This document shows, piece after piece, positions 9,330-27,229 of a stretch of DNA of 64,000 nt (position 1 is its first letter; each line of letters starts with the position of its first letter). The translations under genes and the position numbers were made by a program. The notes under the pieces were generated by a model, which saw only the letters and a list, made by a program, of their open reading frames with translations, did no database searches and was not told where the DNA came from. Source of the stretch: Bacteroidales bacterium (GTDB lineage Bacteria > Bacteroidota > Bacteroidia > Bacteroidales > JAIPAP01). The DNA lies in assembly GCA_021740045.1 (NCBI GenBank), contig JAIPAP010000002.1:13391-77390 (forward strand), read 5' to 3'.

Positions 9330-10802
9330 ATGAAGACAAACATTACGAGACTCACAACTTTCATTTTAGGTATTCTGTTTATAGGAATTGCATCAAATAC
9401 CCTGGCGCAGAAGGATTGGCATTTCGAACAAGTAACCGATGATAACATCAGGGATAAGGTATCGGGGCAGGCTTTTAAAGTAGACGCCGATAACAATCTT
9501 CACTTGGTTTTCGAAAAGTTCGGCGAATCATCACACGATATCTATTACACAAAAAGGCCTTGTGGCGAATACTGGACACAGCCCGTTAAAGTTAATGAAG
9601 AAAACACCAATGCATTTAAGCCGGCGCTGGCAGTAGACAGCCAGAACGTACCCTACGTATTTTATGAAATTGAACATCCTGACAGTATCGACCTTCATCT
9701 GGCTCATATGGAAGATAACAATTGGAATTATGAAGTAATAGTGGATCAACCTAAGTTTAATTTAATGCCCTCGATCGACATTGACGATCAGGGTAAAATC
9801 CACCTGGCCTGGATCGGCCCCGATTCTAAAGACTCCATGCGGGTTTGGTACGCCCATAATGATATGGGAATATGGATGATTCAGAAGCTTGGATTTACTA
9901 TCCCCAACAAGATTGGTGATCCGAAAAGCGGCCCCGAATGTAATGGCGCTAACCCCTGCATTCGCGCTAACAGCGAACAAATTGCCCATATTGTATATCG
10001 CGGTGGCGCCCCTGGATTTATGTACATCCATCACGCCTATAATACCATGCCTTTTGGTATGATGTGGGAAGAAGAGATCGTGGAAACCGAAAATCTTAAT
10101 GATTTTTATGGCATGATCGAGATCGATGATGAGGATAACATCCACTTCGCTGCCAGTGGCAACGACGGTGATGGATTCCCTGATTGGGTTTATTATCGCC
10201 AATTCAGCGATGGTAACTGGAGTGAACCCGAGAAGGTAAATAATATTGTGAACGGCCCGCTCACCTCCATGACCCTCGACAAAGAAGGAAATGCACATAT
10301 TACTTATGATGAGCTCGGTGGCTATATACTCATGGGCAATATCGGTTATGCCAACAATATAGGCGGTACATTCTCCGACACCCTTCTGCTGATCGATAGT
10401 CTCTCAATGAGTGGTGTGGTCCAGGTTGATGGTAATATGAATGTTCATGTTGCGCATCATTGGGGAGAAACCAATGATGAAAACGAAATCAGAGTAATAT
10501 CGGATGGCTACTGTGGTGGAACCACCGGCATTGAAGAGCAGGCTATTAAAGAGCAAGGTTTTGCCATTTATCCCAACCCTGCCGATGAATTTGCTACCCT
10601 GCGCTTTAACAGCGAAGCCAGTAATAAAATTGCCGTGCGGGTTTATAACCTTACCGGAAAGCTTGTAAAAGAGCTCAGCTCACAAAAACTGATGCAAAAA
10701 AATACGGTTACCATAGATATAAGCTCATTAACCAAGGGCATTTATATGGTGCAGTTGACTAATGGTGATCAGTCATACACAAATAAGTTATTGGTTAAGT
10801 AG
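9330..10802 (+). CDS. T9SS cargo protein with a beta-propeller-like sevenfold repeat
   Basis: Signal peptide. A short strand motif recurs about seven times (HLVFE, YVFYE, IHLAWIG, AHIVYRG, IHFAASG, AHITYDE, VHVAHHW). C-terminus is IYPNPADEFATLRF...GIYMVQL...LLVK. Confidence 0.8.
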   Translation: MKTNITRLTTFILGILFIGIASNTLAQKDWHFEQVTDDNIRDKVSGQAFKVDADNNLHLVFEKFGESSHDIYYTKRPCGEYWTQPVKVNEENTNAFKPALAVDSQNVPYVFYEIEHPDSIDLHLAHMEDNNWNYEVIVDQPKFNLMPSIDIDDQGKIHLAWIGPDSKDSMRVWYAHNDMGIWMIQKLGFTIPNKIGDPKSGPECNGANPCIRANSEQIAHIVYRGGAPGFMYIHHAYNTMPFGMMWEEEIVETENLNDFYGMIEIDDEDNIHFAASGNDGDGFPDWVYYRQFSDGNWSEPEKVNNIVNGPLTSMTLDKEGNAHITYDELGGYILMGNIGYANNIGGTFSDTLLLIDSLSMSGVVQVDGNMNVHVAHHWGETNDENEIRVISDGYCGGTTGIEEQAIKEQGFAIYPNPADEFATLRFNSEASNKIAVRVYNLTGKLVKELSSQKLMQKNTVTIDISSLTKGIYMVQLTNGDQSYTNKLLVK

Positions 10803-10832
10803 TAATTGGAGTTTACCTTTTTTAAGCAGAAC

Positions 10833-10864
10833 GACCGGGGGTTTTGGAACTCCCGGTCTTTTTT
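10833..10864 (+). terminator. rho-independent terminator
   Basis: Stem gaccggg / cccggtc followed by a T6 run, 30 nt after the stop at 10802. Confidence 0.6.
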
Positions 10865-10877
10865 AAAAGCAAAATCT

Positions 10878-12548
10878 ATGAAAAAGATCAGTCTTTTATT
10901 CATAATTTTTATTTCGGGACTTTTATCACTAGGCCAATCCCAACGTATGGTGATACTCGAGCATTTTACCGGAGCTTCCTGCACATTTTGCGCTGTTTAC
11001 AATCCCATGGTAGAAGAACTGCTCAATAATCACCCCGACAAAATCACTTCTATTAAATACCAGTTCTTTCTCCCCGACCCCATGTATCATCACTGTAATG
11101 AAGATATTGATGCCAGGTTGGAATACTATAATAATCAGGCTGTCCCGCACAGTATATTGGATGGTAACTTTTTCGACGATCATCCGGCCAACCTTTCCGG
11201 TGAGATTATCCTGGAGCGCTACAATGAGCCTTCGCCTTTTAACATACAGCCTCATCATGAATTATCACCCGATAATGATTCGGTTTATATCGATATGCTA
11301 ATTGAGGCCACAGCCCCCGTTAATGGTAATTTATCGGCATATATTGCCGTTGTGGAAGAGCATATCCATTTTGAAGAGCCGCCCGGACAAAACGGTGAAA
11401 CGGATTTTTATAATGTATTGAAGAAGATGTTACCGACCTCCCAGGGCAAGACGCTGCAGCAAGATTTCCAGGAAGGAGACTATGTGCTATTACAAACCCA
11501 ATGGAAAACCGAGAACTTTTATAATATCGAAAAATTGGAGGTTATTGGTTTTGTGCAGGATATGGGAACCCGGGAAATCCATCAAACGGTTGTTAGCAGC
11601 GATCAGCCCATTACACCCCTTTTTAAAAACGACGTGGAATTGATACAAACTGACCATGTTCCGGCGATCTATTGTGATCATTTGCAACCCCGGATTGTTA
11701 TCAGGAACAATGGCTCACAAACATTGAATAAGCTACAAATCAGTGCATCGATCAACAGGGAAGAGGTGTTTTCAAAAAACTGGACCGGAAATCTCAAATC
11801 ATTAGAAACAACAAGCATTCAACTCGATCCCCTGGAATTTATCCCACAGGAGCAAAACGAACTGTTAATCAGCCTCGCATCTCCTAATAATAGTAACGAT
11901 GGGTATTCAGCCAACAATGAACAGCTATTCGCCATAAAGAACGCTCCCAGGGCTTCTCAATCCATCGTACTCATGATCAAAACCGATAACAATCCCGGCG
12001 AAACTTCATGGAAGCTTATCAACAGCATGGAAGAAATCATTGAGTCCGGGGGGCCATATGATCAAGCAGGCACTTTATACTCACATAGATTAAGTTTTAA
12101 TGATGAGGGTTGTTATACCATTGTCATCTCCGATTCGGCCGGCAACGGATTTAACAGCGAAAACGGCAACGGATTTTTTCTTATCGTAGACGATTCAGGT
12201 AATCCCATGCATGAAGGAACTTTTATCAGCAACTCCATAGGTTTGCCCGTACACATGACCAGTGCCGCTACCATTAAGGAGTCGCAATCAAACACCTTAG
12301 TGCAGGTGTATCCGAATCCCGTAAGAGAGAATGTAACACTGAACATAAATGGTAACATGACCGGCCCGGTTATGATTACCTTATATAATATGTATGGAAA
12401 AAAAGTTCGACAATATGAAAAGAAAAACCTCTATAATGGGATGATAAACCTTAAACTGGACCACTTACAAGCCGGTTATTATATCCTTCAAATTACTGAT
12501 GAAAAAGGGAACACCTATACCACCGAAATGATCAAAGCAAAACCCTGA
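10878..12548 (+). CDS. T9SS cargo protein with an Omp28-related/thioredoxin-fold N-terminal region
   Basis: The track ORF begins at 10806, but that start overlaps the upstream terminator. MKKISLLFIIFISGLLSLGQ at 10878 is a proper signal peptide. The segment MVILEHFTGASCTFCAVYNP resembles the Omp28-related family. C-terminus is VYPNPVRENVTLNI...GYYILQI. Confidence 0.7.
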   Translation: MKKISLLFIIFISGLLSLGQSQRMVILEHFTGASCTFCAVYNPMVEELLNNHPDKITSIKYQFFLPDPMYHHCNEDIDARLEYYNNQAVPHSILDGNFFDDHPANLSGEIILERYNEPSPFNIQPHHELSPDNDSVYIDMLIEATAPVNGNLSAYIAVVEEHIHFEEPPGQNGETDFYNVLKKMLPTSQGKTLQQDFQEGDYVLLQTQWKTENFYNIEKLEVIGFVQDMGTREIHQTVVSSDQPITPLFKNDVELIQTDHVPAIYCDHLQPRIVIRNNGSQTLNKLQISASINREEVFSKNWTGNLKSLETTSIQLDPLEFIPQEQNELLISLASPNNSNDGYSANNEQLFAIKNAPRASQSIVLMIKTDNNPGETSWKLINSMEEIIESGGPYDQAGTLYSHRLSFNDEGCYTIVISDSAGNGFNSENGNGFFLIVDDSGNPMHEGTFISNSIGLPVHMTSAATIKESQSNTLVQVYPNPVRENVTLNINGNMTGPVMITLYNMYGKKVRQYEKKNLYNGMINLKLDHLQAGYYILQITDEKGNTYTTEMIKAKP

Positions 12549-13265
12549 TCAGCCCTTATCGCTGATCTTGACCAGGGCTTCACGGTCATGAATGGTGAAA
12601 TGATTATTGGACAGTTCAATAATGCGGGCATCTTTAAATTCCTTTAGAATACGTATGGCGCTTTCCTTACTCATGGAAGTTAAATCAGCAATGTCTTGCC
12701 TGCTTAATGGTGTTTCAAAACTGGTAGCGTTATGAATTTCATCGGCAAGGTATAATAATGCATCGGCAATACGCCCCGACATGTGCTTTTGGGTAAGGTT
12801 GATGAATTTTTTAAAGTTTTGTATTCCCTGTATATTATTCTTTTTAAGGATGTTAAGGGCCAGGTTCTGGTTCATTTTCATGATCTTCTCCAGGGAATTC
12901 ACATCTATAAAGCACGTTTGCACATCAGTTAAGGCCGCTACTGAAAAATGATGAATAAAATCAACATACATTCCCGGCCCACCAATAATGGCGTTTTCCC
13001 TGGCCACTTTAATAAGAAGGTTTTTTTTGTTAAGCCCCTCGATATATATTTTTACCATACCCTGCAGAATGCAGGCAATGTGGGTAAGCGCTGTACCTTG
13101 CTTAAACATAATTTCACCGGCGTTAAATTCAACTTCATGCCGGTTCTCATTCAGTATTTCAAGTTGTTCGGGTGATAATCCCCTAAAGATACTTTGAGTT
13201 AAACAGCATGTAGTACATGCCATCTTTCTTGAATATTTCGCCATTGAATCTCTCTTTTCCGCCAC
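12549..13265 (-). CDS. Crp/Fnr-family transcriptional regulator with an N-terminal Cys cluster
   Basis: cNMP-binding-like beta-roll and a C-terminal HTH (RQDIADLTSMSKESAIRILKEF). Cysteines sit at C17, C20, C21 and C118 (numbered from the track start), reminiscent of FNR iron-sulfur ligands. Confidence 0.85.
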   Translation of the reverse strand: MAEKRDSMAKYSRKMACTTCCLTQSIFRGLSPEQLEILNENRHEVEFNAGEIMFKQGTALTHIACILQGMVKIYIEGLNKKNLLIKVARENAIIGGPGMYVDFIHHFSVAALTDVQTCFIDVNSLEKIMKMNQNLALNILKKNNIQGIQNFKKFINLTQKHMSGRIADALLYLADEIHNATSFETPLSRQDIADLTSMSKESAIRILKEFKDARIIELSNNHFTIHDREALVKISDKG

Positions 13266-13481: not shown

Positions 13482-14543
13482 ATGATGACCAAAAAACTTA
13501 CAATCATGAAACGATTTAATTTACTAGCACTTATGATGGCCATATTCATTGGCTCGGCAATTATTTTTGCAGGATGTACAAAGGAAGGACCGCAAGGCCC
13601 TCCAGGTAAGGACGGCGAAGACGGTGTTGACGGCGAAGACGGCACTGCCGGCTGTATTGAATGCCATGATGATTCACAAACGATCTTTGCAGCTGAAAAT
13701 CAATGGGCAGCATCGGTACATGCCACCGGAGGCAATTTTGAGCGTAACGGTACAGATTGTGCGCCATGTCACACCAGCCAGGGATTTCTGGAAGTTATCG
13801 AAACCGGAGCTATGGAAACAGAAGCCCCCATTAGCAATCCAAATCCCCAAAACTGTTATACCTGTCATAATATCCATGACACATACACACCCGAAGATTG
13901 GAGCTTTACAACTTCTGCTCCGGTTGAATTCTGGATTAACGGTGATGGGTATGATATGGGCAAATCGAACGTGTGTGCAGGATGCCACCAGCCCAGAGTT
14001 CCTGATCCACTACCAACACCCGGGCAGGGCGGTAATGTAACCATCAATTCACCCTATTGGGGTCCGCACCATGGCCCGCAAGCAGCTATGCTGGTGGGAA
14101 CCGGTGGTTACGAAGTAGGAAGTGGCTACGACAACTCGGCCCATACCAATGCCCTTGAGAATGGATGTGTAACATGCCACATGGCGGAGCCCTATGGTAC
14201 TCAGGCAGGCGGTCATACCATGGGAATGACTTATGCGTATCATGGCCATGGCGTGGTGAATAAGGCTGGCTGCACAGCTTGCCACACCGATCCGGATGCC
14301 TTGGACGCTAAGATTGAAAGCACTAAAGAGGACATTGACGAAAAACTGGCCGAACTACGCAGTAAGCTTCTCGAACGTGGAGTATTGGATAGCAGCGACC
14401 ACGTAGTGCCCGGTGAAATGAGCATGGATGAAGCAGGCGGTGTGTTCAACTACCTTTATGTTATGGAAGATCGCAGCGGTGGTAGCCATAATTTCAACTA
14501 TGCCTTTTCCCTACTGAATAACAGTCTTGAATCATTGAATTAA
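13482..14543 (+). CDS. hexahaem c-type cytochrome lipoprotein with a collagen-like Gly-X-Y tract
   Basis: Lipobox IIFAGC. GPQGPPGKDGEDGVDGEDGTAG follows it immediately. Six CXXCH motifs (CIECH, CAPCH, CYTCH, CAGCH, CVTCH, CTACH). The alternative start MKRFNLL at 13506 gives a cleaner signal peptide. Confidence 0.85.
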   Translation: MMTKKLTIMKRFNLLALMMAIFIGSAIIFAGCTKEGPQGPPGKDGEDGVDGEDGTAGCIECHDDSQTIFAAENQWAASVHATGGNFERNGTDCAPCHTSQGFLEVIETGAMETEAPISNPNPQNCYTCHNIHDTYTPEDWSFTTSAPVEFWINGDGYDMGKSNVCAGCHQPRVPDPLPTPGQGGNVTINSPYWGPHHGPQAAMLVGTGGYEVGSGYDNSAHTNALENGCVTCHMAEPYGTQAGGHTMGMTYAYHGHGVVNKAGCTACHTDPDALDAKIESTKEDIDEKLAELRSKLLERGVLDSSDHVVPGEMSMDEAGGVFNYLYVMEDRSGGSHNFNYAFSLLNNSLESLN

Positions 14544-14697: not shown

Positions 14698-15090
14698 ATG
14701 AAAGGTTGGAAAATATTCAGAATAGGAATCATATTCATGATAGTGGCAGCTTTTACATCATGCGAATATGAATTTATCGAGCCGCCTCAACCCGATTTTA
14801 ACGGCGAGGATAGTGTTTTAAGCTTTTCCGATAAAATTCTCCCCATTTTTACGGATGGTGATAACTGTACATCATGCCACAACAGCGGCGGGACCCCACC
14901 CGATCTTACAGCGGGCAATGCCTATAACAGCATTATGAATAATAATCTGGTTGACACGGCTGCACCCGAGCAAAGTGTACTTTATGATTATGTAAGACCG
15001 GATACCGATAGCCACGACTGGAAAGCGTATACCTCAACCGAAGCTCAGCTGGTTCTTGAATGGATCAAACAAGGAGCTAAGAATAATTAA
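14698..15090 (+). CDS. small monohaem c-type cytochrome lipoprotein
   Basis: Signal peptide ending in the lipobox AFTSC, followed by an acidic stretch EYEFIEPPQPDFNGED. There is a single CTSCH motif. Confidence 0.7.
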   Translation: MKGWKIFRIGIIFMIVAAFTSCEYEFIEPPQPDFNGEDSVLSFSDKILPIFTDGDNCTSCHNSGGTPPDLTAGNAYNSIMNNNLVDTAAPEQSVLYDYVRPDTDSHDWKAYTSTEAQLVLEWIKQGAKNN

Positions 15091-15986
15091 TGTCGGAACG
15101 AAAAAATATGAGGATGATGAAGAATAAAATAGTATGGCTTGTGTTGATCGGTTTGATCATTACAACAACTGCTTTTGCACAAGATGAACAAAAACGCCAG
15201 GATCCACCGGTAAGAGCACCCTTCGAAAGCGGTGTGCTTATCGACAATCAAACGGTTCAGATACCTTATAAAAACACCCTTGAATTTGTTATCGAACACC
15301 GTTTTGGAACTATTGATAACGGCTTAACCGATATGTACGGTCTTTATGCACCGTCGAATATCAGGTTGGGGCTGAATTACAGCATTACCGACGATATTAT
15401 GGTAGGGGCTGGAATTACCAAAGATCGTAAACTTACCGACCTGCGCGGTAAATATAGTATTATAAAGCAAACCCGGAATAACAGCATTCCGGTGTCGGTT
15501 TCCTTTTACGGAAACATGGCAATTGATGGAAGGGAAGATGCTTACTTTGGCGAACAATATGAGTTTACCAACCGCTTCTCCTATTTTTCCCAATTGATCT
15601 TTTCCCATAAATTCGATTACCGTTTCTCATTCCAGGTGGCCCCGAGCTTTTCGCATATTAATGCAGTGGACTCGGCTTACGAGCATGATAAACTTGCCGT
15701 CTCGCTGAGTGGCCGGGCACGTTTTAGCCCTCAGTCATCTATTATCGTAAACTACGATATTCCATTGCACATTGAAAGCATGCAGGAACACGCTACCTTA
15801 AATATAAAGCCGAAACCAAACCTCGGTGTAGGATGGGAGGTATCCACCAGCACCCACGTTTTCCAGATCTTTGTGGGAACGGCCGATGCTATGATGCCCC
15901 AGTACAATATTATGTTTAACCGTAATGACTGGACTGATGGAGAGATCATGCTCGGATTTAACATTACGCGATTATGGAGTTTCTAG
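15090..15986 (+). CDS. predicted outer-membrane beta-barrel protein
   Basis: TAATG stop/start overlap with the upstream gene. Signal peptide (VWLVLIGLIITTTAFAQ). Alternating amphipathic strands throughout. C-terminal GFNITRLWSF ends in Phe, a beta-signal-like terminus. The start may be an internal Met (MRMMKNK). Confidence 0.6.
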   Translation: MSERKNMRMMKNKIVWLVLIGLIITTTAFAQDEQKRQDPPVRAPFESGVLIDNQTVQIPYKNTLEFVIEHRFGTIDNGLTDMYGLYAPSNIRLGLNYSITDDIMVGAGITKDRKLTDLRGKYSIIKQTRNNSIPVSVSFYGNMAIDGREDAYFGEQYEFTNRFSYFSQLIFSHKFDYRFSFQVAPSFSHINAVDSAYEHDKLAVSLSGRARFSPQSSIIVNYDIPLHIESMQEHATLNIKPKPNLGVGWEVSTSTHVFQIFVGTADAMMPQYNIMFNRNDWTDGEIMLGFNITRLWSF

Positions 15987-16023: not shown

Positions 16024-16440
16024 ATGAAGAAGAATATGTTATCGGTACTGCTTGTGAGTTTTGCCGCCATTATGCTTATGGCGTTTACAGCACCGCAGGA
16101 TAAGAAAAAAGGCGAGCCTTGGGATATCCCTGAAAAATATCAGAAAATGGAAAATCCCCATAAAGGTGATAAAGGCATGGTTCGTATAGGAAAAATGCTT
16201 TATTCCAAGCATTGCAAATCATGCCACGGTAACCGTGGACAAGGTGACGGACCGCGAGCCAGGCAACTGGAAACCTTCCCCGGGGACTTCACTTCCGAGG
16301 AATTCCAGGAACGCAAAGCCGGTGTATTGTACTATCAGTCATTCATCGGACGTGATGAGATGCCCAACTTCGAAAAGGAAATCCCTGTTGAAGAAGATCG
16401 CTGGGCTATTATTAACTACTTAAGAACATTCGGAGAATAA
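16024..16440 (+). CDS. periplasmic monohaem class I cytochrome c (paralog 1)
   Basis: Signal peptide, CKSCHG haem motif, distal Met candidate in GRDEMPNF, and an RBS-like aggagag upstream. Confidence 0.85.
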   Translation: MKKNMLSVLLVSFAAIMLMAFTAPQDKKKGEPWDIPEKYQKMENPHKGDKGMVRIGKMLYSKHCKSCHGNRGQGDGPRARQLETFPGDFTSEEFQERKAGVLYYQSFIGRDEMPNFEKEIPVEEDRWAIINYLRTFGE

Positions 16441-16458
16441 ACCTATAATGAATGTTAA

Positions 16459-16524
16459 AACCCTGTTCGCACCCGGTTTGGAGTAAGTGATTATTCCTCT
16501 GTAAGGCATGGTGCGCACAGGGTT
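16459..16524 (+). terminator. long-loop hairpin downstream of the cytochrome c gene
   Basis: 15-bp arms aaccctgttcgcacc / ggtgcgcacagggtt (1 mismatch) with a ~36-nt loop, followed by gtttatt. Confidence 0.35.
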
Positions 16525-16557
16525 GTTTATTAAGATGATAACTTTAAATTAACTACC

Positions 16558-17520
16558 ATGAGCGGGCGAAATCTGATAATTTTTCTTTCGATCTCAATAA
16601 CATTACTACTAGGTACTTCCGCAGCTCCGGCCCAGGAACAAGATACAACCGGCTTACCCGAAAACGTGAAAGCTAATGAAGAATGCCTGAGCTGCCATGG
16701 CAATGAATATTATTCATACTTTAACCGGTGGCTCGACAGGAATGTACGCGACCGGATGAATCCTTATTATATCATCGATTCATCCAAATTCTATCATTCC
16801 AACCATAGCACCTTTAAATGTATCGATTGCCATTCTTATGAATATGATACTTTCCCCCACCCGGGCGGATTAAGGTTGGAACCCCAGTACACATGCATGG
16901 ACTGCCATGCATGGGGGGAGGAATGGGAAAAATTCAATTTCGAGACCATCCAGAAAGAATTCCAGGAAAGCGTCCATTACCAGGAACACAATCAATCATT
17001 CGATTGCTGGATGTGTCATGAGCCACACTCCTATAAATTAACGGCTCGTAAATCCGACACCATTAAAAATATTGTGGCTTACAACAATTCGATCTGTTTA
17101 AGCTGTCATTCCAATACAGATAAATACCAACTAATTGCCGAAAAAGAAAATCCCAACCTTATTGAAAGCCACGATTGGTTACCCAATCAGCGATTGCATT
17201 TTAATAATGTTCGTTGCCTCGAGTGTCATGCTAAAAAAGTAGACACCCTGATGGTGGCTCATAATATACGGCCCAAAGAAGAAGCTGTGCGGAAATGCGC
17301 AGAATGTCATTCGAGGAATTCCATGCTTATGGCTAGTTTATACAAATATAAATCAAAACAGGCCCGGCAAGAATATGGTTTTCTGAATGCGATTATGATG
17401 AGTGAATCATTTGTTATAGGAGCCAACAGAAACCAAATCCTCAATACAATCAGTCTGGTCATTTTCGGACTTGTAATACTCGGGATTGTAATTCATACTA
17501 TCTTGCGAATTATAAACTAA
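16558..17520 (+). CDS. heptahaem c-type cytochrome with a C-terminal membrane anchor
   Basis: Signal peptide. Seven CXXCH motifs (CLSCH, CIDCH, CMDCH, CWMCH, CLSCH, CLECH, CAECH). C-terminal hydrophobic helix ISLVIFGLVILGIVIHTIL. Confidence 0.85.
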   Translation: MSGRNLIIFLSISITLLLGTSAAPAQEQDTTGLPENVKANEECLSCHGNEYYSYFNRWLDRNVRDRMNPYYIIDSSKFYHSNHSTFKCIDCHSYEYDTFPHPGGLRLEPQYTCMDCHAWGEEWEKFNFETIQKEFQESVHYQEHNQSFDCWMCHEPHSYKLTARKSDTIKNIVAYNNSICLSCHSNTDKYQLIAEKENPNLIESHDWLPNQRLHFNNVRCLECHAKKVDTLMVAHNIRPKEEAVRKCAECHSRNSMLMASLYKYKSKQARQEYGFLNAIMMSESFVIGANRNQILNTISLVIFGLVILGIVIHTILRIIN

Positions 17521-17539
17521 ACTGAAGATAAAAGAAGAA

Positions 17540-18175
17540 ATGGGAAAAAAGATCTATCATTATCCGTTTTGGATTCGCCTTTGGCACTGGGTTAATGCAG
17601 TATTATGTATCCTTCTGATCTTCTCCGGCTTGAGTATGCAATATTCTGATCCGCAAAACTACTTTATTTCTTTCGATGTGGCGGTATCAATGCATAATGT
17701 TTCGGGAATATTATTAACTCTCGGATACATAGGCTTTTTGATCGGTAATATCAGAACATCCAATGGCAGTTATTACAAAATTAACTGGTCTACCATCGGG
17801 CGCGATCTGATAAAACAGCTTAGGTACTACATGTTTGGGATGTTTAGAAAGGAAAAGACACCTTTCCCGATCAATGATAAGCGAAAATTGAATCCTTTGC
17901 AAAAAGTAACCTATGATGGTGTTATGTACCTTCTGCTTCCCTTATTGATTATAACCGGCTGGGCATTGCTCTTTCCGGAGATAATACTTGACCGTTTGTT
18001 TGGGGTAAGCGGGTTGCAATTAAACGACCTGGTGCATATCATTACCGGGTTCTTGGTTTCCATCTTTTTGGTTGTCCATATCTACTTCAGCACAATTGGA
18101 GCAACGCCTTCAGCACATTTTGAGGCAATGATCAATGGATATCATAAGATGCATGATGAACCGGAAAGCCACTAA
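17540..18175 (+). CDS. membrane b-type cytochrome (Ni/Fe-hydrogenase/FdnI/PhsC-like cytochrome b family)
   Basis: Four to five TM helices with conserved His residues. The N-terminal motif FWIRLWHWVNAVLCILLIFSGL is typical of this family. The gene starts 19 nt after the heptahaem gene. Confidence 0.7.
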   Translation: MGKKIYHYPFWIRLWHWVNAVLCILLIFSGLSMQYSDPQNYFISFDVAVSMHNVSGILLTLGYIGFLIGNIRTSNGSYYKINWSTIGRDLIKQLRYYMFGMFRKEKTPFPINDKRKLNPLQKVTYDGVMYLLLPLLIITGWALLFPEIILDRLFGVSGLQLNDLVHIITGFLVSIFLVVHIYFSTIGATPSAHFEAMINGYHKMHDEPESH

Positions 18176-18276
18176 CTAGTTACAGCAACAGAAGGACAGC
18201 TATCAGTAAGAGACTCAAGAATCACACTATATTAAGCGGAAGGAATGAATAGCTCATAAACTAAAACCGAAAAACC

Positions 18277-19779
18277 ATGAAATTACCCAAGGCCTTTTAC
18301 AACTGGACTTCCCTGTCGGGAGCAACTTTAGCAATGATAAGCTTTTTTATCATTGTCTTCTTGATTTTGATATCGATGATTTATTCCGGCGGTAGTTCTT
18401 ATCTTGGGTTGTTCACTTACATTATTTTACCGGTATTTCTTGTTATTGGGTTAATTCTTATTCCCATCGGGATGATAAGGAAGACCAAAAAAGATAAGAA
18501 AACCGCTCCTGCACCTGAACAAAAAAAGTGGCCGATTCTCAACCTGAACGATACCCGTTACAGGAATGCTCTGATAGTTTTCTCCTTCGGAACGCTCATT
18601 TTCCTGATGGTATCGGCCATTGGGAGTTACGAGGCTTATCATTATACCGAATCGGTTGAATTTTGCGGCAAAGTGTGCCACGAAGTGATGAAGCCCGAAT
18701 ATATAGCTTATCAGAATTCACCACATGCCAGGGTAGCATGCGTAGATTGCCATGTTGGGCCGGGAGCCGGATGGTATGTAAAATCCAAATTATCGGGTTT
18801 ATACCAGGTATATGCGGTTACAACCGGTAATTACCCCAAGCCCATACCCACGCCGGTTGAAAATTTACGCCCGGCCAGAGAAACCTGTGAAGAATGCCAT
18901 TGGCCTCAAAAATTTTATTCCCGTAAGCTAAAATTCCGCAAACACTATTTGGCTGACACTAAAAATACCGAGTGGGATATTACTATGGAAATGAAAATAG
19001 GTTCCAATTATGAGGCATTAGGACTTAAGGAGGGAATTCACTGGCACATCAACCCGGATGTTAAAATCGAATACATTGCCGCTGATGACAAACGGGAAGT
19101 AATACCATGGGTACGCTATACCGATACTAAAACAGGCGAATCGGTTATTTATCAAAGCCCCGATACCACCATTAACGCCAAGCAGGTAGAGCCATCAAAA
19201 ATCCGCACCATGGATTGTATTGATTGCCATAACCGGCCATCGCATAATTATCATCCTCCGCAGGAATATTTCGATAATGCCATTACCGCCGGAAAAGTGC
19301 CCAAAGAATTACCCGATATTAAAGTAGCTGCTATGGGCGTTTTAAGCGAAGATTACCCAACCACCGATAGCGCCATGGAATTTATCGAAAGCGAAATTAA
19401 TACCTATTACGAGTTATTGTACCCTGAAGTATACGACACTGCCAAAGCCCTGATCGATCAGGCCATAGAAGCAACAAAGGAAGAATTCAAAAAGAACGTA
19501 TTCCCGGGCATGAAGGTTAAATGGAATAAATACCCCAATCACATCGGGCATCTTAACTCCGAAGGATGTGTTCGTTGCCATGACGATAAGCATGTTTCCA
19601 TGAATGGCCGTACCATTTCACGTGATTGTAATTCATGCCATGACATTGTTGCCCAGGGAACACCCGGTAAAATGGAACAAGCGTCGGCCTTGGAAACCCT
19701 CGAATTCAAACACCCCATTGATATAGGTGAGGCCTGGAGAGAAACTCACTGTGCTGATTGTCATAAAGACTTGTATTAA
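18277..19779 (+). CDS. membrane-anchored multihaem cytochrome with a NapC/NirT-like region (ImcH-like architecture)
   Basis: Two to three N-terminal TM helices. The NapC/NirT-like signature is CGKVCHEVMKPEYIAYQNSPHARVACVDCH. There are six CXXCH motifs (CVDCH, CEECH, CIDCH, CVRCH, CNSCH, CADCH) plus one CX3CH (CGKVCH). Confidence 0.8.
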   Translation: MKLPKAFYNWTSLSGATLAMISFFIIVFLILISMIYSGGSSYLGLFTYIILPVFLVIGLILIPIGMIRKTKKDKKTAPAPEQKKWPILNLNDTRYRNALIVFSFGTLIFLMVSAIGSYEAYHYTESVEFCGKVCHEVMKPEYIAYQNSPHARVACVDCHVGPGAGWYVKSKLSGLYQVYAVTTGNYPKPIPTPVENLRPARETCEECHWPQKFYSRKLKFRKHYLADTKNTEWDITMEMKIGSNYEALGLKEGIHWHINPDVKIEYIAADDKREVIPWVRYTDTKTGESVIYQSPDTTINAKQVEPSKIRTMDCIDCHNRPSHNYHPPQEYFDNAITAGKVPKELPDIKVAAMGVLSEDYPTTDSAMEFIESEINTYYELLYPEVYDTAKALIDQAIEATKEEFKKNVFPGMKVKWNKYPNHIGHLNSEGCVRCHDDKHVSMNGRTISRDCNSCHDIVAQGTPGKMEQASALETLEFKHPIDIGEAWRETHCADCHKDLY

Positions 19780-19949: not shown

Positions 19950-20366
19950 ATGAAAAGAATTTTAGCATTATTAATGGTTTTCAGCATGGCCATTATATTT
20001 TTAATGGCATTTACATTTCCACAAGATCAAAAAGAAGGCAAACCCTGGGATATTCCTGAAAAATACAAAAAGATGGAAAATCCGCATAAGGGTGACAAAC
20101 GATCGGTACGAATCGGCAAGATGCTTTATTCCAAGCATTGTAAATCGTGCCATGGCAACAAAGGAGCCGGTGACGGCCCGCGTGCCAAGCAACTGGAAAC
20201 ACAACCCAACGACTTTGGCACTAAAGAATTCCAGGAGCAAAAAGCCGGTGTGTTGTATTATAAATCATTTATCGGCCGTGGGGAAATGCCCAATTTCGAA
20301 AAGGAAATTCCCGTTGAGGAAGACCGTTGGGCTATTATCAATTACATGAGAACATTTGGTAAATAA
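19950..20366 (+). CDS. periplasmic monohaem class I cytochrome c (paralog 2)
   Basis: Same length (138 aa) as the 16024-16440 product. Roughly four-fifths of mature-region residues are identical by eye. CKSCHG motif, with aaggag upstream. Confidence 0.85.
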   Translation: MKRILALLMVFSMAIIFLMAFTFPQDQKEGKPWDIPEKYKKMENPHKGDKRSVRIGKMLYSKHCKSCHGNKGAGDGPRAKQLETQPNDFGTKEFQEQKAGVLYYKSFIGRGEMPNFEKEIPVEEDRWAIINYMRTFGK

Positions 20367-20376
20367 AGTCCTCACC

Positions 20377-20438
20377 CCCCTTTCGTTGCCAGAATACTTT
20401 TAAAAGACCTTCTTTTAACAGATCGGTTGCGAAAGGGG
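20377..20438 (+). terminator. long-loop hairpin downstream of cytochrome c paralog 2
   Basis: Arms cccctttcg / cgaaagggg with a ~45-nt loop, followed by ttgtttattt. It sits in the same place as the hairpin after paralog 1. Confidence 0.3.
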
Positions 20439-20892
20439 TTGTTTATTTCAACCACCTCATTACTCCAGCCTTCACTTATAGATGAAAACAAATTTTGACT
20501 TTGCGAAAGAGTTAGGAGCGAATATTCTGGGAAGTTGCCGCGTATTTGATTAGGAATGAGTATGAAAAGCCCGTCCATATGAATACGGCAAAAACGCTGG
20601 CTGGCGTGCGTTTGGAGCGAATTACATAAATCGTGAGTAATTGTCCTAACCTATCGGTTTGCAGCGGCTTAACGCGTGCCCGGCAAATTTCCTCGTTTGT
20701 AACGAGATTTTATTACACACCGCTAAAACCGGCATGATTTGCACATTGCAGGCAGCATTTAGCTTTATCTCATCACAGACGAGTGATATAGAAAGGCACA
20801 CGATGCTATCGCGCGCCAGCAGCCGGGTTGCAAAATTAAAAATGGCAAGGATTTGTATAGACAAAAGTTGAAAAGATCAAAGCTGATTTCGC

Positions 20893-21307: not shown

Positions 21308-22765
21308 ATGAAAACCAAGTCCCTTTTTTCGCTACTGATCGGCCTGAGTATAATTCACCTTGCATTTACCCAAGAGCTTCACCAATGGCATGAACCTGTT
21401 ATGCTTACTGATTCTTTATCGGATAACCATGATCCCTGCATCAGCACCTTTAACTCCATTACCCCTGCTCAAAGCATAATGGCGTGGGAGAAAGTGATCA
21501 ATGAAAACACAACAGCCATTTGCATACGTGAACTCACAGAAATGCCCCCAACCGATACGGTTCTCTATGAAGATAATGTCCATTACCTGAACCCGGAGAT
21601 CATGAAACCTTATCATGGATTTCCCAAATCGGAGGTGATGTATTTATTGATTTATAACCGGGTTGAAGGAGAAGATCACAGCCTTGCATACTTTGAAGCT
21701 TATGATGACGGCACCTATTCGGAACCCACCGAAATTGCTTCTGCAATTGGCGATTCATTGGCATTTTCAGCGGCAAATGAAATTGGAATAGCTTACAGCA
21801 AGCAAGAGGAAATACGCTATGCTCCTTTGCTGGAAGAAAAATCGAAAGACCTGTATTTTGGCGAAGTCCAGGTAGTGGATACCGGGAATTGCTTCTCTCC
21901 ATTCCTTTCAATGGATTATAAGTTATGCTGGCTTAAAGCTGTGGATGATAGTATGGCTATTATGCATTCAGCATACAGTTTTTATCAGGATGAATGGTCG
22001 GAGCCCGAAGAAGTGTATAGAGGCCAAGAAATAACTGGGTTTGGCGGAAATAAGAAAGGAGCTTTTACAAGCCTTATTCATTGGTATGAACCGGCCGAGC
22101 CATACAGCAAGGTCTTTTATTATGGACTATTGAGCGGTGAACTTCACGAAATGGAAATACCGGAAAACACCGCTAAAAGTTACCCAACTGTAATCACCTA
22201 TCCAATGATCACCACCGGTTTTACTATTGTTGATGCCCTTATTGGCTTTGTCGTCGATTCGGGGGATAATCCTGAAATCTTTGCCAATAATCAAATGTAT
22301 GGCAGTTATCCCGAAATAAACATCTCCAATTATGCCGGGATGGATACCAAACCGGAAATGTTCCTGGGCGAAATAGGTCCATACTGGATGGAAATTCTTT
22401 GCACCTGGGAATCCTACCGGAACGGGCATTGGGTGATTATGAAGAATTACTTATATGCTGCATTAGGCAGCGTGGAGGAAACCGAAAGTACTGCCGGGGA
22501 TTTCAAATTGCACCCCAACCCAATGGATCATTCTGCTACTGTTAGTTATGAGCTGAACAATCCCGGCCCTGTTCGTATAAGCATTTACGATCAACGCGGA
22601 AAAATAATCAAAACACTGATTAATGAGGAAAAGGATAGCGGCCATCATCAAATCACATGGGACAGGACAAGTGCTGATGGAACTGATGTGCCGCCGGGTA
22701 TTTATTTGATTAGATTTAATACCGGGAGCCAATCTGCCTCCAAAAAACTAATAGTCATCCATTAA
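21308..22765 (+). CDS. T9SS cargo protein, tandem paralog 1 of 5
   Basis: Signal peptide MKTKSLFSLLIGLSIIHLAFTQ. Conserved family motifs (W.EPV.LTD..SDN..P, NISNY.G.DTKPE, WES.RNGHW). C-terminal HPNPMDHSATVSY...GIYLIRF. Confidence 0.85.
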   Translation: MKTKSLFSLLIGLSIIHLAFTQELHQWHEPVMLTDSLSDNHDPCISTFNSITPAQSIMAWEKVINENTTAICIRELTEMPPTDTVLYEDNVHYLNPEIMKPYHGFPKSEVMYLLIYNRVEGEDHSLAYFEAYDDGTYSEPTEIASAIGDSLAFSAANEIGIAYSKQEEIRYAPLLEEKSKDLYFGEVQVVDTGNCFSPFLSMDYKLCWLKAVDDSMAIMHSAYSFYQDEWSEPEEVYRGQEITGFGGNKKGAFTSLIHWYEPAEPYSKVFYYGLLSGELHEMEIPENTAKSYPTVITYPMITTGFTIVDALIGFVVDSGDNPEIFANNQMYGSYPEINISNYAGMDTKPEMFLGEIGPYWMEILCTWESYRNGHWVIMKNYLYAALGSVEETESTAGDFKLHPNPMDHSATVSYELNNPGPVRISIYDQRGKIIKTLINEEKDSGHHQITWDRTSADGTDVPPGIYLIRFNTGSQSASKKLIVIH

Positions 22766-22821
22766 AGGGAACATAGCCATTATGAAATTCACCAAATTGC
22801 GATAACCAAAATACATCAACC

Positions 22822-24276
22822 ATGAAAACTAAAAACATTTTTATGCTACTGATCAGCCTTAGTTTAATTCACCTTGCATTCGCGCAGGAATTTTACGAAT
22901 GGCAGGAACCGGTCATGCTTACCGATGCATCATCGGATAACTTCAACCCTTATATCAGCCATTTATACGCATCAAATGATCAAAAAACGATCATGGCATG
23001 GGAAAAGATCATCAATGAAAACACTACCGCCGTTTGCATGCGGGAATTGATGGAAATGACACCGGTAGACACTTTTTTGTATGAAGAAAATGTGCATTAC
23101 CTGAATCCTGAGATCATGAAACCATCATGGTTTTTTGATGGGTCGGAAATTCTCTATTTGCTTTTTTATAATAAGGTTGAAAGCAATACGCATAGTCTTA
23201 ACTATATAACTTTTTATGAAGACGGCACCTATTCTCCCCCTACCCCAATGGCCTCCAGTACAGAGGATTCACTGCATTTTTCGGTAGCCGATGGATTAGG
23301 CGTTTCATGGAATGAGGGAGGAGGCATTTATTTCTCCCGGGTTTTTAATAATGGGCCAAAAGGCATTCAATTGGGAAGCATCGATCAGCTCGACTCGGTG
23401 AATTGCAGCAACCCTGTCCTTACAAACCTTTTCCACTGTGCCTGGCTAAAACCCAACGGGAACAATCTTAGCATCTACTCTGCCGAGTATAACCCCTGGG
23501 ATCAATTGTGGAACGACCCGGTGGAAGTCCATACAGCTTCGGAAATAAAAGGATTTGGTGGAAGCACAAAAGCCTTTATGTATGATGCGTTGTTTTGGTT
23601 TGATCATAATGAGCCTTACAACAGGGCTTTTTATTATGATCTGCAATATGATGAGGTCATTGAAGTAGATAAGCCCTATAATACCGATAAAAGCTACCCT
23701 ACAGCCCTTGATCATCCCATTATGGTTACTGCTTTTGATATTCCCCAAACCCTTGTCTCATTTGTAGCTGACTCAGGGAATAATCCTGAGATTTATGCCA
23801 ATACCTATAATGGAGCGAATGAATATGTGAATATTTCGAATGATCCGGGCCTGGATACCAAACCAGAATTATACATCGGTGAAACGGGAGGTTATTGGAT
23901 GAAAATCCACTGCGTATGGGAATCGAAAAATAACGGGCATAGTGTATTGATGGGGAATTATATGAAGGTGATGATGGGAAGTACTAATGAAAACCAATCC
24001 CAACATAATGACATGAGCATCCACCCCAACCCCATGAGCAATTTAACAACCATTGAATACGCACTAAAGGAAAAAGGTGAGGTTTCCATTCAAATCTATG
24101 ATCAGCACGGAAAGCTAATCGACCATCTTGTCAATGAAGAAAAGGCGGCCGGAAGCCATCAAGTAAGATGGAATGGAACATCGATCAATGGAACACCGGT
24201 ACCGGCGGGGGTGTATTTGGTAAAGATAGAAACAAAAGGAATTACCGAAACTGAAAAATTAATCATCAACAAATAA
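22822..24276 (+). CDS. T9SS cargo protein, tandem paralog 2 of 5
   Basis: Closest to paralog 1 along the body of the protein. CTD is HPNPMSNLTTIEYALKEKGEVSIQIYDQHGKLIDHL. Confidence 0.85.
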   Translation: MKTKNIFMLLISLSLIHLAFAQEFYEWQEPVMLTDASSDNFNPYISHLYASNDQKTIMAWEKIINENTTAVCMRELMEMTPVDTFLYEENVHYLNPEIMKPSWFFDGSEILYLLFYNKVESNTHSLNYITFYEDGTYSPPTPMASSTEDSLHFSVADGLGVSWNEGGGIYFSRVFNNGPKGIQLGSIDQLDSVNCSNPVLTNLFHCAWLKPNGNNLSIYSAEYNPWDQLWNDPVEVHTASEIKGFGGSTKAFMYDALFWFDHNEPYNRAFYYDLQYDEVIEVDKPYNTDKSYPTALDHPIMVTAFDIPQTLVSFVADSGNNPEIYANTYNGANEYVNISNDPGLDTKPELYIGETGGYWMKIHCVWESKNNGHSVLMGNYMKVMMGSTNENQSQHNDMSIHPNPMSNLTTIEYALKEKGEVSIQIYDQHGKLIDHLVNEEKAAGSHQVRWNGTSINGTPVPAGVYLVKIETKGITETEKLIINK

Positions 24277-24300
24277 TGATCAATCCAAAAAAACTGCCCT

Positions 24301-25746
24301 ATGAAACCAAAAACCACATTTTTACTCGCAATAACCGTACTGCTGTCAAATCTTTTGGCAGCTCAGGAATTGTACGAATGGCATGGCGCTGAACTGATCA
24401 CCGACACAGTCTCGGATAATCATCATCCTTTTGTGATCCACTGGGATAACACCTATGTGTATTGGGAAAAATCGGCCGGTGATGCCACCATGATCTGCCG
24501 CAAGGACATTACCACTGAAAAAACTTCAATCGATACGATTTTATACCAGGATGGTGTCCATTTTAAAAATCCACGCGCTATGAAGCTCTCGCTCTTTCAG
24601 CGGCAAATTTACGATACCGAGTACATGTTGCTTTATGAGCGTTGGACAGATGAGGAAGGGAGTGTTTATTACCTGAAATATCAAAACGGGGGCATATTCT
24701 CCGATCCTATCCTCATCTCCGATTCATTATCGGTTGCAAACAGCGTTTTCTCAAGGTCACAACACGGGGCTGTTTGGCTTTTAGATAATAAAATCCTGTA
24801 CTCTAATCTTACGGTTGATGCCGGTTTTGAATCACCGGTTGTGATCGATTCGGGCAATTACCGGAAACCTGTCCTTACCATTGAAAACGGATGCGCATGG
24901 TTAACGGAGAGTGAAGCGCAAACACAGCTTCTATATGCTGAGCAGGATAAATCAAACGGTTGGATGGATCCCCAGGTGGTATATGAAAGCGACACCCTGT
25001 TTGACCTTACCACGGAATTGAATACAGCTATGAACGGGAGCTATTCACTTGTTTCATTCGGGACCGTTGAAAATCAAATGCATACGGTAAAAAATTACGA
25101 TATCGATGATAACACGATAAGGGATGTAGATTATCCTGAAAATGCCGAAAAGGAGCTTCCCACCGTAATTTCAAAATACATTCCGGTAAAAAGACTTGAT
25201 GCTTTTTTTTATACAGCCCTTGTTAGTGATACTGATTCCGGTAGGGAGATTTTCGCATCCGGGGATGGCTTTCAATCAATTAATGCAAATATCTCCAATT
25301 ATCCGGGAACCGATACCAACCCCAAGCTTTTCTACGGAGGTAGCGGTTGGGTCGATTCTCCATATGTTGAATTGATTTGCATATGGGAATCAAACCGAAA
25401 TGAACACTGGGCTTTGGCGATGAATAAAATCTGGATAGATGCAAGCAGTAGTCTTCTGGAAGAACCTTCAGATAATGCAAGCCTTTCCATAAAACCCAAC
25501 CCCATGAGCAATTCAACAACCATTGAATACGCACTAAAGGAAAAAGGTGAGGTTTCCATTCAAATCTATGATCAGCACGGAAAGCTAATCGACCATCTTT
25601 TAAATGAAGAAAAGGCTGCCGGAAGCCATCAAGTAAGATGGAATGGAACATCGATCAATGGAACACAGGTACCGGCGGGGGTGTATTTGGTAAAGATAAA
25701 AGCTCTAGGAATTACTAGAACTAAGAAATTAATCATCAACAAATAA
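24301..25746 (+). CDS. T9SS cargo protein, tandem paralog 3 of 5
   Basis: Second subfamily (shared with paralogs 4 and 5), yet its CTD is nearly identical to that of paralog 2. Confidence 0.85.
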   Translation: MKPKTTFLLAITVLLSNLLAAQELYEWHGAELITDTVSDNHHPFVIHWDNTYVYWEKSAGDATMICRKDITTEKTSIDTILYQDGVHFKNPRAMKLSLFQRQIYDTEYMLLYERWTDEEGSVYYLKYQNGGIFSDPILISDSLSVANSVFSRSQHGAVWLLDNKILYSNLTVDAGFESPVVIDSGNYRKPVLTIENGCAWLTESEAQTQLLYAEQDKSNGWMDPQVVYESDTLFDLTTELNTAMNGSYSLVSFGTVENQMHTVKNYDIDDNTIRDVDYPENAEKELPTVISKYIPVKRLDAFFYTALVSDTDSGREIFASGDGFQSINANISNYPGTDTNPKLFYGGSGWVDSPYVELICIWESNRNEHWALAMNKIWIDASSSLLEEPSDNASLSIKPNPMSNSTTIEYALKEKGEVSIQIYDQHGKLIDHLLNEEKAAGSHQVRWNGTSINGTQVPAGVYLVKIKALGITRTKKLIINK

Positions 25747-25769
25747 TTACTGATCCAAAAAACAAAGTC

Positions 25770-27200: not shown

Positions 27201-27229
27201 TCTTCAAACCAGTATAAAAAAAATACATC

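Follow-up and report, generated by a model that had tools for sequence, protein, structure and literature searches.

Geobacter is known to possess three exits from its menaquinone pool, ImcH, CbcL and CbcBA, each required within its own range of acceptor potentials, and ImcH of Geobacter sulfurreducens is reportedly treated in work by Levar dating from 2014. The question raised by the locus presented here is whether two such exits stand side by side in a bacterium from a different phylum. The locus is situated in a 64-kb window (the whole stretch of DNA analyzed, 64,000 nt, to which all positions refer) of the genome of an uncultured Bacteroidales bacterium, in which an earlier note had described a split CbcL-like gene pair followed by an ImcH-like cytochrome with an unusual haem site. 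In our judgement, the products of these genes are quite likely two distinct menaquinol:cytochrome-c oxidoreductases of the inner membrane, both of known kinds, namely an ImcH-family protein and a CbcBA-type pair, probably co-transcribed with a monohaem cytochrome c.

Gene calls were taken from the list of open reading frames (ORFs), family scans were performed with Pfam and NCBIfam, helices were predicted from hydropathy, and CXXCH and CX3CH motifs were counted. The ORFs, motif counts and hydropathy confirmed the three genes as previously described, with regard to coordinates, strand, haem motifs and helices:

16558..17520, plus strand: CbcA-like heptahaem c-type cytochrome (320 amino acids (aa); signal-like N-terminus, seven CXXCH, C-terminal helix)
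17540..18175, plus strand: CbcB-like four-helix dihaem cytochrome b (211 aa; PF01292)
18277..19779, plus strand: ImcH-family inner-membrane heptahaem cytochrome, predicted quinol oxidase (500 aa; three N-terminal helices, CX3CH, six CXXCH)
18664..18681, plus strand: CGKVCH (residues 130-135), the CX3CH site of haem 1, located at the predicted menaquinol pocket

The ImcH-family protein and the CbcBA-type pair

The ImcH family has been defined by three transmembrane helices, one CX3CH motif, six (5-9) CX2CH motifs and a length of about 495-519 aa, and the atypical CX3CH beside the membrane domain is a hallmark of all its homologues (Zhong & Shi 2018, PMC6295460). The 500-aa product displays hydrophobic N-terminal helices at about residues 10-35, 42-68 and 96-118, one CX3CH and six CXXCH (at 155, 204, 314, 431, 451 and 492), all 14 of its 14 Cys being located in haem motifs. 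In GSU3259, the 507-aa ImcH of Geobacter, the helices span residues 13-35, 45-67 and 100-122 and the motifs are found at 132, 156, 205, 311, 428, 448 and 486 (Table S3, PMC6295460); the haem spacing of the window protein is collinear with these published positions, apart from shifts of a few residues in the 3/4 and 6/7 haem intervals. Two other ImcH homologues from Table S3 were 53% (Draconibacterium sediminis, locus L033, with the same motif positions) and 57% (Caldithrix abyssi) identical to it.

A preprint dealing with purified ImcH of Geobacter assigns H137 and Q179 as haem-1 ligands and E127, K173 and Y188 as conserved pocket residues (10.1101/2023.05.03.539133). These residues recur here as E125, H135, K171, Q177 and Y186, with equal spacings (10, 36, 42 and 51). 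As checked on the D. sediminis sequence, the CX3CH coordinate of Table S3 (PMC6295460) appears to be that of the first Cys plus one, and its numbering leaves a one-residue mismatch with H137 of 10.1101/2023.05.03.539133, relative spacings being unaffected. In an alignment of 202 homologues, C130, G131, C134, H135, M138, E125, K171 and Q177 were invariant (202 of 202), the wider haem-1 motif being C-G-x-x-C-H-x-V-M, and the Y186 site was occupied by Tyr or Phe in 186 of the 202. Six other His (150, 255, 257, 323, 425 and 479) were at least 97% conserved in the same alignment and would therefore fit bis-His ligation of haems 2-7. All family features examined were present, which supports the assignment of the 500-aa protein, as an ImcH-like product, to the ImcH family. 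Perfect conservation also led us to reject a sequencing or annotation quirk as the origin of the CX3CH. The site, which had been singled out as an oddity whose conservation deserved a check, is thus no novelty, since it is both perfectly conserved and a published family hallmark.

More than 8000 database relatives of this protein were found at E<=1e-5, and the best 120 of them were 58-95% identical, the named ones originating from Bacteroidales, Bacteroidota or Melioribacteraceae. Together with the 676 clusters obtained for the cytochrome b (see below), these numbers indicate real conserved genes and not chance ORFs.

The CbcBA system of Geobacter combines a periplasmic seven-haem cytochrome c, whose C-terminal anchor helix appears to provide a b-haem His, with a separate four-helix dihaem b subunit that usually bears a 'thiosulfate reductase'-like annotation (10.1101/2021.04.15.440034). 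Judged from its sequence, the pair at 16558-18175 has this architecture, each published point being matched. The 320-aa protein contains exactly seven CXXCH, accounting for 14 of its 14 Cys, and one C-terminal hydrophobic helix (292-320). Among 31 homologues, the seven CXXCH, seven distal His and His313 of the anchor helix were all invariant, and the distal His are predicted to provide bis-His ligation. The 211-aa protein is devoid of CXXCH and matched Pfam Ni_hydr_CYTB (PF01292, E 2.8e-27) as well as, at about 1e-15, FdnI (TIGR01583) and the b-type cytochrome subunit of Ni/Fe-hydrogenase (TIGR02125). Three of its hydropathy segments exceeded the threshold; the stretch containing His52 (about residues 45-70) remained below it and was taken as the fourth helix. 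His16, His52, His166 and His180 were conserved among 32 sequences, recovered like the CbcA-like set from related loci, and reproduce the FdnI/HydC ligand pattern.

The CbcB-like protein was 100% identical to an NCBI protein named 'MAG: Bacteroidales bacterium', and an exact-match look-up of its gene returned no record. An exhaustive search yielded relatives in 676 representative clusters at E<=1e-3; relatives bear the name 'thiosulfate reductase cytochrome b', and those with named hosts among the listed matches include Bryobacterales and Zoogloea. Of the best 150 of these 676 representatives, 58 were at least 480 aa long with at least five CXXCH, mostly seven, and 51 of the 58 matched both window proteins end to end. 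These natural CbcA::CbcB fusions (about 505-555 aa, seven haems, a b domain of about 200 aa) constitute Rosetta-stone evidence that CbcA and CbcB form a complex, and in each of the five fused forms inspected the linker helix contains an equivalent of the anchor His. The order cbcA-cbcB was kept in about 30 loci. A sequence search of the PDB returned nothing for CbcB and weak generic multihaem matches for CbcA. Homologous cbcBA clusters have been reported from Caldithrix and Bacteroidetes, including Prolixibacter, Marinilabiliales and Labilibaculum (Joshi et al., 10.1101/2021.04.15.440034), and these Bacteroidetes taxa are those of the syntenic loci recovered here.

The description of the pair as a split CbcL therefore stands for the general design, a multihaem cytochrome c acting with a PF01292 cytochrome b as a quinol oxidoreductase, and fails for the architecture, which is that of CbcBA (seven haems, four-helix b) with a b domain other than that of CbcL. 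CbcL (GSU0274) has 619 aa, nine haems and transmembrane helices between residues 285 and 611, forming a six-helix b domain of about 335 aa (PMC6295460), against four helices plus one and seven haems for the window pair. No sequence homology is shared by CbcB and CbcL, with four and six helices, respectively (Joshi et al., 10.1101/2021.04.15.440034). We regard it as highly improbable that the pair is a gene-split CbcL orthologous to GSU0274 and serving intermediate- or low-potential acceptors, even though both systems join a multihaem c to a PF01292 b-type cytochrome and a genuinely split CbcL-type pair occurs in a close relative. Profile alignment (hhalign) of the 211-aa protein with the b domain of a Bacteroidota CbcL-type protein gave a probability of 72% (E 3e-5) with the four His positions aligned; the profile identity with this domain, which is not that of GSU0274, was 17%, and BLASTP found 18.6% identity over 86 aa (E 0.009), which is not significant. 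Moreover, the nine-haem, 619-aa, six-helix layout of CbcL was not encountered among the best 150 of the 676 cytochrome-b representatives, whereas the published account of CbcBA fits the pair at every point.

An example of both types is provided by D. sediminis, in which a 943-aa protein with 19 CXXCH and a C-terminal multi-helix PF01292 domain is encoded between cbcB and imcH; its haem spacing is collinear with that of the 19-haem Bacteroidetes and Caldithrix members of the CbcL/MtoC/MtrH family of Zhong & Shi. D. sediminis is missing from the CbcL table of these authors (PMC6295460). As both types are found side by side in relatives, CbcAB and CbcL-type proteins are distinct paralogous lineages, and the 211-aa protein and the b domain of CbcL would belong to different subfamilies of the same superfamily.

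The family scans bear on another explanation, according to which the two modules are membrane anchors of a conventional periplasmic reductase, the cytochrome b being a PhsC and the NapC/NirT-like protein an NrfH or TorC, with no extracellular acceptor involved. The 500-aa protein matched NapC/NirT (PF03264) with an E value of 6.7e-15, its best NCBIfam model was NrfH (TIGR03153, E 1.2e-16), and its sole PDB relative was again NrfH (2j7a_C, E 2e-5), aligned from haem 1 onward in such a way that the haem-1 CXXCHxM of NrfH faces CGKVCHEVM. Likewise, the best NCBIfam model for the 211-aa protein was the thiosulfate-reductase cytochrome b (PRK15006, E 1.4e-52). However, both scores are under the curated equivalog cut-offs (61 versus 134.2 bits for NrfH, 178.8 versus 204 for PRK15006), a heptahaem cytochrome invariably accompanies the b subunit as a paired or fused partner, and the three helices and seven haems of the 500-aa protein contrast with one helix and four haems in NrfH. 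No gene for PhsA/PhsB, NrfA, TorA or any other catalytic reductase subunit was found in the cluster or among the annotated ORFs of the window, and genes for molybdopterin or FeS subunits are likewise absent from the cluster. For this last reason anchoring of the PhsC or NrfH type is disfavored, and we give it very little credit compared with two quinol oxidoreductases of the ImcH and CbcBA kinds.

Boundaries of the probable operon and arrangement in relatives

The three genes follow each other on the plus strand, with spacers of 19 nt (cbcA-cbcB) and 101 nt (cbcB-imcH), and are flanked by two paralogous monohaem cytochrome c genes whose products are 79% identical. The elements delimiting the group are as follows:

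16024..16440, plus strand: monohaem class-I cytochrome c, candidate periplasmic carrier (138 aa, signal peptide)
16446..16535, plus strand: long hairpin with U-rich run, terminator-like (-35.2 kcal/mol, z -3.8; 0 of 200 shuffles fold as well)
19950..20366, plus strand: second monohaem class-I cytochrome c (138 aa), whose gene closes the putative cbcA-cbcB-imcH-cytc unit
20377..20446, plus strand: hairpin with U-rich run, terminator-like, after the second monohaem gene (-27.7 kcal/mol, z -3.8)

The hairpin at 16446-16535 separates the upstream genes from cbcA, and no comparable hairpin was detected in the cbcB-imcH and imcH-cytc spacers. The only strong terminator-like hairpins being one ahead of cbcA and one behind the second cytochrome c gene, a transcription unit cbcA-cbcB-imcH-cytc is suggested. 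A scan for sigma-70 promoters returned 30 matches versus 26 +/- 5 in shuffled sequence, which is no excess, and promoters of Bacteroidota differ from the sigma-70 type scanned for. From the 19-nt spacer and the hairpins, the adjacent ImcH and CbcBA-type genes are probably operonic.

The distribution of this arrangement was surveyed among the 80 best species-level loci anchored on ImcH, cbcAB being counted as nearby when within 10 kb. Labels of these loci were nearly all Bacteroidota, Ignavibacteria/Melioribacter or Calditrichota. Two contigs binned as 'Heimdallarchaeota archaeon' (L069) and 'Syntrophomonadaceae' (L028) contain ImcH genes whose products share 55-56% identity with that of the window; they are probably mis-binned rather than true archaeal or Firmicutes ImcH, because this identity is in the range of most Bacteroidota loci returned. 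The 80 loci were distributed as follows:

7 of 80 loci: cbcAB directly upstream of imcH, as in the window
17 of 80 loci: cbcAB, then a CbcL-type gene, then imcH (Prolixibacteraceae: Draconibacterium, Mangrovibacterium, Maribellus)
6 of 80 loci: cbcAB elsewhere within 10 kb of imcH
32 of 80 loci: cbcAB missing although the flank is 3 kb or longer (for the most part Melioribacter, Ignavibacteria, Calditrichota and other Bacteroidota)
18 of 80 loci: flank too short to judge cbcAB

Altogether, cbcAB was found within 10 kb of imcH in 30 of the 80 species loci, and the cluster is conserved in Bacteroidales and Prolixibacteraceae. The earlier note had considered the presence of both types in one block as remarkable; their adjacency is real and probably operonic, but the arrangement proves to be a common and conserved one in these two groups. 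In D. sediminis (L033, 5197-11503) and 16 other Prolixibacteraceae-type loci, CbcAB, a fused 19-haem CbcL-type protein and ImcH are encoded in a row, followed by a tetrahaem c554-like gene and a ResB/CcsA cytochrome-maturation fusion.

The closest relatives on record are Logan contigs L081-L084, with an ImcH 95% identical to that of the window. Comparison with L081 delimited one variable segment:

16231..18243, no strand assigned: variable bc cassette, comprising the 3' half of the first cytochrome c gene, cbcA and cbcB (compared with L081 2283-7472)

The flanks of this segment are 90-95% identical at the DNA level and the proteins that they encode are similarly close (94% for the small monohaem protein c130, 97% for the DUF5777 barrel, both described below, and 93% for the downstream cytochrome c, whose gene also follows imcH in L081), whereas CbcA and CbcB are 45% and 57% identical, respectively. 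The break in identity lies at about 16231, inside the first cytochrome c gene, and identity resumes at about 18243, 34 nt upstream of imcH. Since diverged bc genes stand between near-identical flanks, the bc entry module behaves as an exchangeable cassette, and the paralogous monohaem cytochrome c genes may mediate the exchange.

Between its cbcA and cbcB, L081 (3617-6744; also L082 and L083) carries genes for a 759-aa 23-haem cytochrome and a 283-aa cytochrome b, which overlap by stop and start; their products share 43% and 58% identity with the c part and the b part, respectively, of the fused 943-aa Draconibacterium protein. The two constitute a genuinely split CbcL-type pair; the idea of a split CbcL is thus realized in a sister lineage and not in the window.

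Cluster context and proposed path of electrons

Upstream of the first monohaem cytochrome c gene, the cluster contains a regulator and a putative outer-membrane set:

12549..13265, minus strand: Crp/Fnr-family transcription regulator at the head of the cluster, a position kept in most syntenic loci
13482..14543, plus strand: lipoprotein hexahaem cytochrome (353 aa; lipobox Cys32, then a collagen-like G-X-Y linker)
14698..15090, plus strand: small lipoprotein-like monohaem protein, c130 (130 aa; Cys22 after a hydrophobic signal segment, one CXXCH)
15090..15986, plus strand: DUF5777 outer-membrane beta-barrel, predicted 12 strands (Pfam E 1.3e-79)

The hexahaem lipoprotein shows weak similarity to domains II/IV of MtrC/MtrF, and its PDB sequence search gave weak generic multihaem matches. 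Its collagen-like G-X-Y run, GPQGPPGKDGEDGVDGEDG, directly follows the lipobox Cys (window 13575-13650, residues ~32-57), is also found in the homologues from Draconibacterium and from an anode metagenome-assembled genome (MAG), and may be a tether keeping the cytochrome off the membrane. The c130 gene is syntenic in about 30 loci. As listed, the DUF5777 ORF begins at 15090 and abuts the upstream stop; its true start is probably Met10 (about 15117), as indicated by homologues and by a 100%-identical database protein of 289 aa. The AlphaFold2 (AF2) model of this protein is a 12-strand barrel with a predicted local distance difference test score (pLDDT) of 81. It recalls small channels of the outer membrane (COG4313, FapF, OMPLA and OmpG), and its best Foldseek matches (TM ~0.5) were the 12-strand barrels 4rl8, FapF and OMPLA. 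No Cyc2-like cytochrome fusion was seen among the best 120 of its 2253 homologues, all stand-alone proteins of about 290 aa, and a literature search on DUF5777 found no papers. Among the 31 loci that have DUF5777, it accompanies cbcAB in 29. The PDB matches of the monohaem cytochromes were cytochrome c552 and the monohaem subunit of alternative complex III (ACIII).

From gene structure, motifs, family-level homology, ligand conservation, synteny and the terminator-like boundaries described above, we infer a scheme covering complex formation, the direction of electron flow, the partners, the physiological acceptor and the role of the small barrel. The ImcH-like protein would oxidize menaquinol in an NrfH-like pocket at haem 1, the CX3CH haem, held by three helices; following the published Geobacter model, the ligands of this haem would be the CX3CH His and Gln177. 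Glu125 and Lys171 would release protons to the periplasmic side and electrons would run along the seven haems into the periplasm, making the step electroneutral. In the other module, the four-helix dihaem CbcB-like protein would oxidize quinol and pass electrons across or along the membrane to the heptahaem CbcA-like subunit, which would dock by its own C-terminal helix bearing His313. Both modules may feed the two periplasmic monohaem cytochromes, and these in turn the outer-membrane set encoded upstream, namely the 12-strand DUF5777 barrel, the monohaem lipoprotein and the hexahaem lipoprotein. Such a system would most likely serve to respire anaerobically with acceptors that are extracellular or dissolve poorly, for instance Fe(III), Mn(IV), humics or electrodes, and by analogy with Geobacter the two entry modules may differ in the acceptor potentials or energy yields that they cover.

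A role in extracellular electron transfer (EET) was supported circumstantially by homologues from organisms enriched on an anode, 720-fold in the case of a Zoogloea and 39-fold in that of a Bacteroidota MAG (Ouboter et al. 2021, PMC8258643). The Zoogloea encodes CbcB-like (39% identity, E 5e-53) and CbcA-like (34% over the full length, E 1e-65) counterparts of the window pair, adjoining MtrB/PioB and a DmsE-like decahaem cytochrome. The Bacteroidota MAG (PMC8258643) carries adjacent CbcL-type and ImcH-like (43%, E 5e-162) genes, together with a lipoprotein cytochrome 30% identical (E 3e-40) to the product of 13482-14543. The genes of both clusters were left 'hypothetical' by the authors (Ouboter et al. 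2021, PMC8258643).

Class-I monohaem cytochromes are used in the pathways of Fe(II) oxidizers (MtoD, Cyc1), and the carriers of the present cluster, which resemble c552 and the ACIII monohaem subunit, belong to this class. For this reason a reading with reverse flow is kept alive, in which electrons would be taken up from Fe(II), Fe(0) or a partner cell via the outer-membrane proteins and the monohaem cytochromes, the bc module either reducing quinone or supplying an oxidase or nitrate reductase. Relatives of CbcL/MtoC and of CymA are implicated in both directions (PMC6295460), and the Zoogloea homologues adjoin a conduit of the MtrB/PioB type, common to reducers and oxidizers. On the other hand, reducers are to date the sole organisms in which homologues of ImcH have been encountered, and these proteins are considered to act exclusively as quinol oxidases (PMC6295460), the carriers of related clusters are enriched on anodes, i.e. 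on electron acceptors (PMC8258643), and the Marinilabiliales relative Labilibaculum manganireducens is reported to reduce Mn(IV). Reverse flow is, on these grounds, an unlikely reading, and outward flow through the two quinol oxidases is preferred.

Several points nevertheless weigh against two co-transcribed oxidoreductases that respire external acceptors. The ImcH and CbcBA assignments of Bacteroidota members are made from sequence, and likeness to GSU3259 and GSU0593/0594 was established via published motif coordinates, named residues, architecture and literature-listed intermediaries. For the ImcH-like protein, the AF2 model derived from an alignment of 14 sequences had a mean pLDDT of 50.7, too low for use. 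The pairing of imcH with cbcAB is not obligatory, 32 of the 62 informative loci having no cbcAB nearby. With 12 strands, the DUF5777 barrel lacks the width to surround a multihaem cytochrome in the way MtrB does, which leaves the outer-membrane step without precedent. Class-I monohaem cytochromes usually have fairly positive potentials and differ from the trihaem PpcA of Geobacter; monohaem carriers would likewise be compatible with the uptake of electrons or with a connection to an oxidase. Finally, the sigma-54 regulator BccR or its like, used by Joshi et al. to spot cbcBA homologues in Deltaproteobacteria (10.1101/2021.04.15.440034), was not found at the window cluster, where the regulator is of Crp/Fnr type; BccR-like regulators are, however, a contextual marker and do not define the CbcBA protein family.

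Taken together, the cluster and its variants allow a broader and more tentative interpretation, to which we attach clearly less confidence than to the two oxidoreductases themselves. The locus could represent an undescribed trans-envelope conduit specific to Bacteroidota, whose outer-membrane part, made of the DUF5777 barrel, the monohaem lipoprotein and a tethered surface hexahaem lipoprotein, would be unlike any porin-cytochrome complex. CbcAB, CbcL-type proteins and ImcH would then be inner-membrane entry cassettes swapped between close relatives, possibly by recombination at the flanking paralogous cytochrome c genes, and if this were true such swaps would adjust the range of redox potentials open to the pathway.

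The literature already covers the CX3CH site, the two families and their joint occurrence in Bacteroidota, and the finding alone is an annotation refinement, not a discovery. In the literature searched, no paper was found stating a co-operonic ImcH and CbcBA, a DUF5777-containing cluster or a cassette-like replacement of bc genes. The interest of the locus resides in the presence of the ImcH and CbcBA types in one probable operon, in a phylum other than that of Geobacter, and in the three types standing in a row in cultivable Prolixibacteraceae, which offers a compact and genetically approachable locus. It could show whether potential-dependent switching is intrinsic to the proteins or regulatory, and it bears on whether the abundant Bacteroidota of sediments respire minerals. 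The combination of imcH, cbcAB and DUF5777 may also serve as a practical marker set for predicting mineral respiration ability in metagenomes.

Regarding the wider window, the stretch immediately downstream of the cytochrome cluster (21308-28672) is occupied by five tandem paralogous genes, whose products are each about 480 aa long and bear type IX secretion C-terminal sorting domains (Por_Secre_tail); no homologues of these genes were seen adjoining the cluster in the 80 related loci. Four more type IX secretion cargo genes are located upstream (1505-2554, 2647-6177, 9330-10802 and 10806-12548), one of which encodes a 1176-aa PKD/cohesin protein. With such cargo genes on both sides, the cytochrome cluster sits in surroundings that encode many secreted surface proteins. 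A transposase-like integrase gene of the rve type, at 42536-43429, is flanked by housekeeping genes. The right third of the window is a ribosomal-protein/SecY/RpoA/EF-G region, which indicates that the locus is chromosomal.

Comparison with known systems

The ImcH-like protein shares with NrfH, NapC and CymA a quinol-dehydrogenase module with a membrane helix, an unusual haem 1 and a Lys equivalent to NrfH Lys82. These proteins have one helix, four haems and a CXXCHxM motif, against three helices, seven haems and a CX3CH here, where a reductase partner gene is lacking. CbcL/MtoC/MtrH (GSU0274) and the window pair have in common the design of a quinol/quinone oxidoreductase made of a multihaem c and a PF01292 dihaem b, with four remotely aligned His; the former is a single, fused protein chain carrying nine haems (in the family at large, 3-23), the latter two genes with seven. 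CbcL-type genes (19-23 haems) occur as an extra gene in related clusters and none is present in the 64-kb window.

Among described Bacteroidota loci, the 'EET gene cluster' of the anode MAG Bacteroidetes_1 (PMC8258643) has an ImcH-like protein, a lipoprotein cytochrome with collagen linker, a beta-barrel and a bc-type quinol oxidase beside imcH. It differs by a fused CbcL-type gene in place of the CbcAB pair and by its barrel, which is larger, is not DUF5777 and gave no BLASTP match to the window DUF5777 protein at the cut-off used.

The window pair and CbcBA (GSU0593-0594) agree in the heptahaem c subunit, the His-bearing C-terminal helix, the separate four-helix dihaem b and the order cbcA-cbcB. 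All four b-haem His are within the window CbcB (16, 52, 166 and 180), whereas three are noted for that of Geobacter. Control is by sigma-54/BccR in Geobacter, while a Crp/Fnr gene heads the window cluster. Unlike in Geobacter, the window cbcAB is embedded between monohaem cytochrome c genes and adjoins imcH.

The closest parallel to the 500-aa protein is ImcH itself (GSU3259). The two proteins are nearly equal in length (507 versus 500 aa) and share three N-terminal helices, a CX3CH directly after helix 3, six CXXCH with near-identical spacing, four NrfH-like first haems, the haem-1 pocket residues and six distal His. Identities of non-Geobacter homologues to GSU3259 range from 31 to 49% in the literature. 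The differences concern the host (Desulfuromonadia versus Bacteroidales), three to four residues more in the window protein from haem 3 to haem 4 and from haem 6 to haem 7, and the genetic context: imcH (GSU3259) and cbcBA (GSU0593-0594) occupy separate loci in Geobacter, whereas the window imcH apparently shares a transcript with the genes for a CbcBA-type pair and for a monohaem cytochrome c. The likely periplasmic partner would accordingly differ as well, being a class-I monohaem cytochrome in the window and PpcA in Geobacter.

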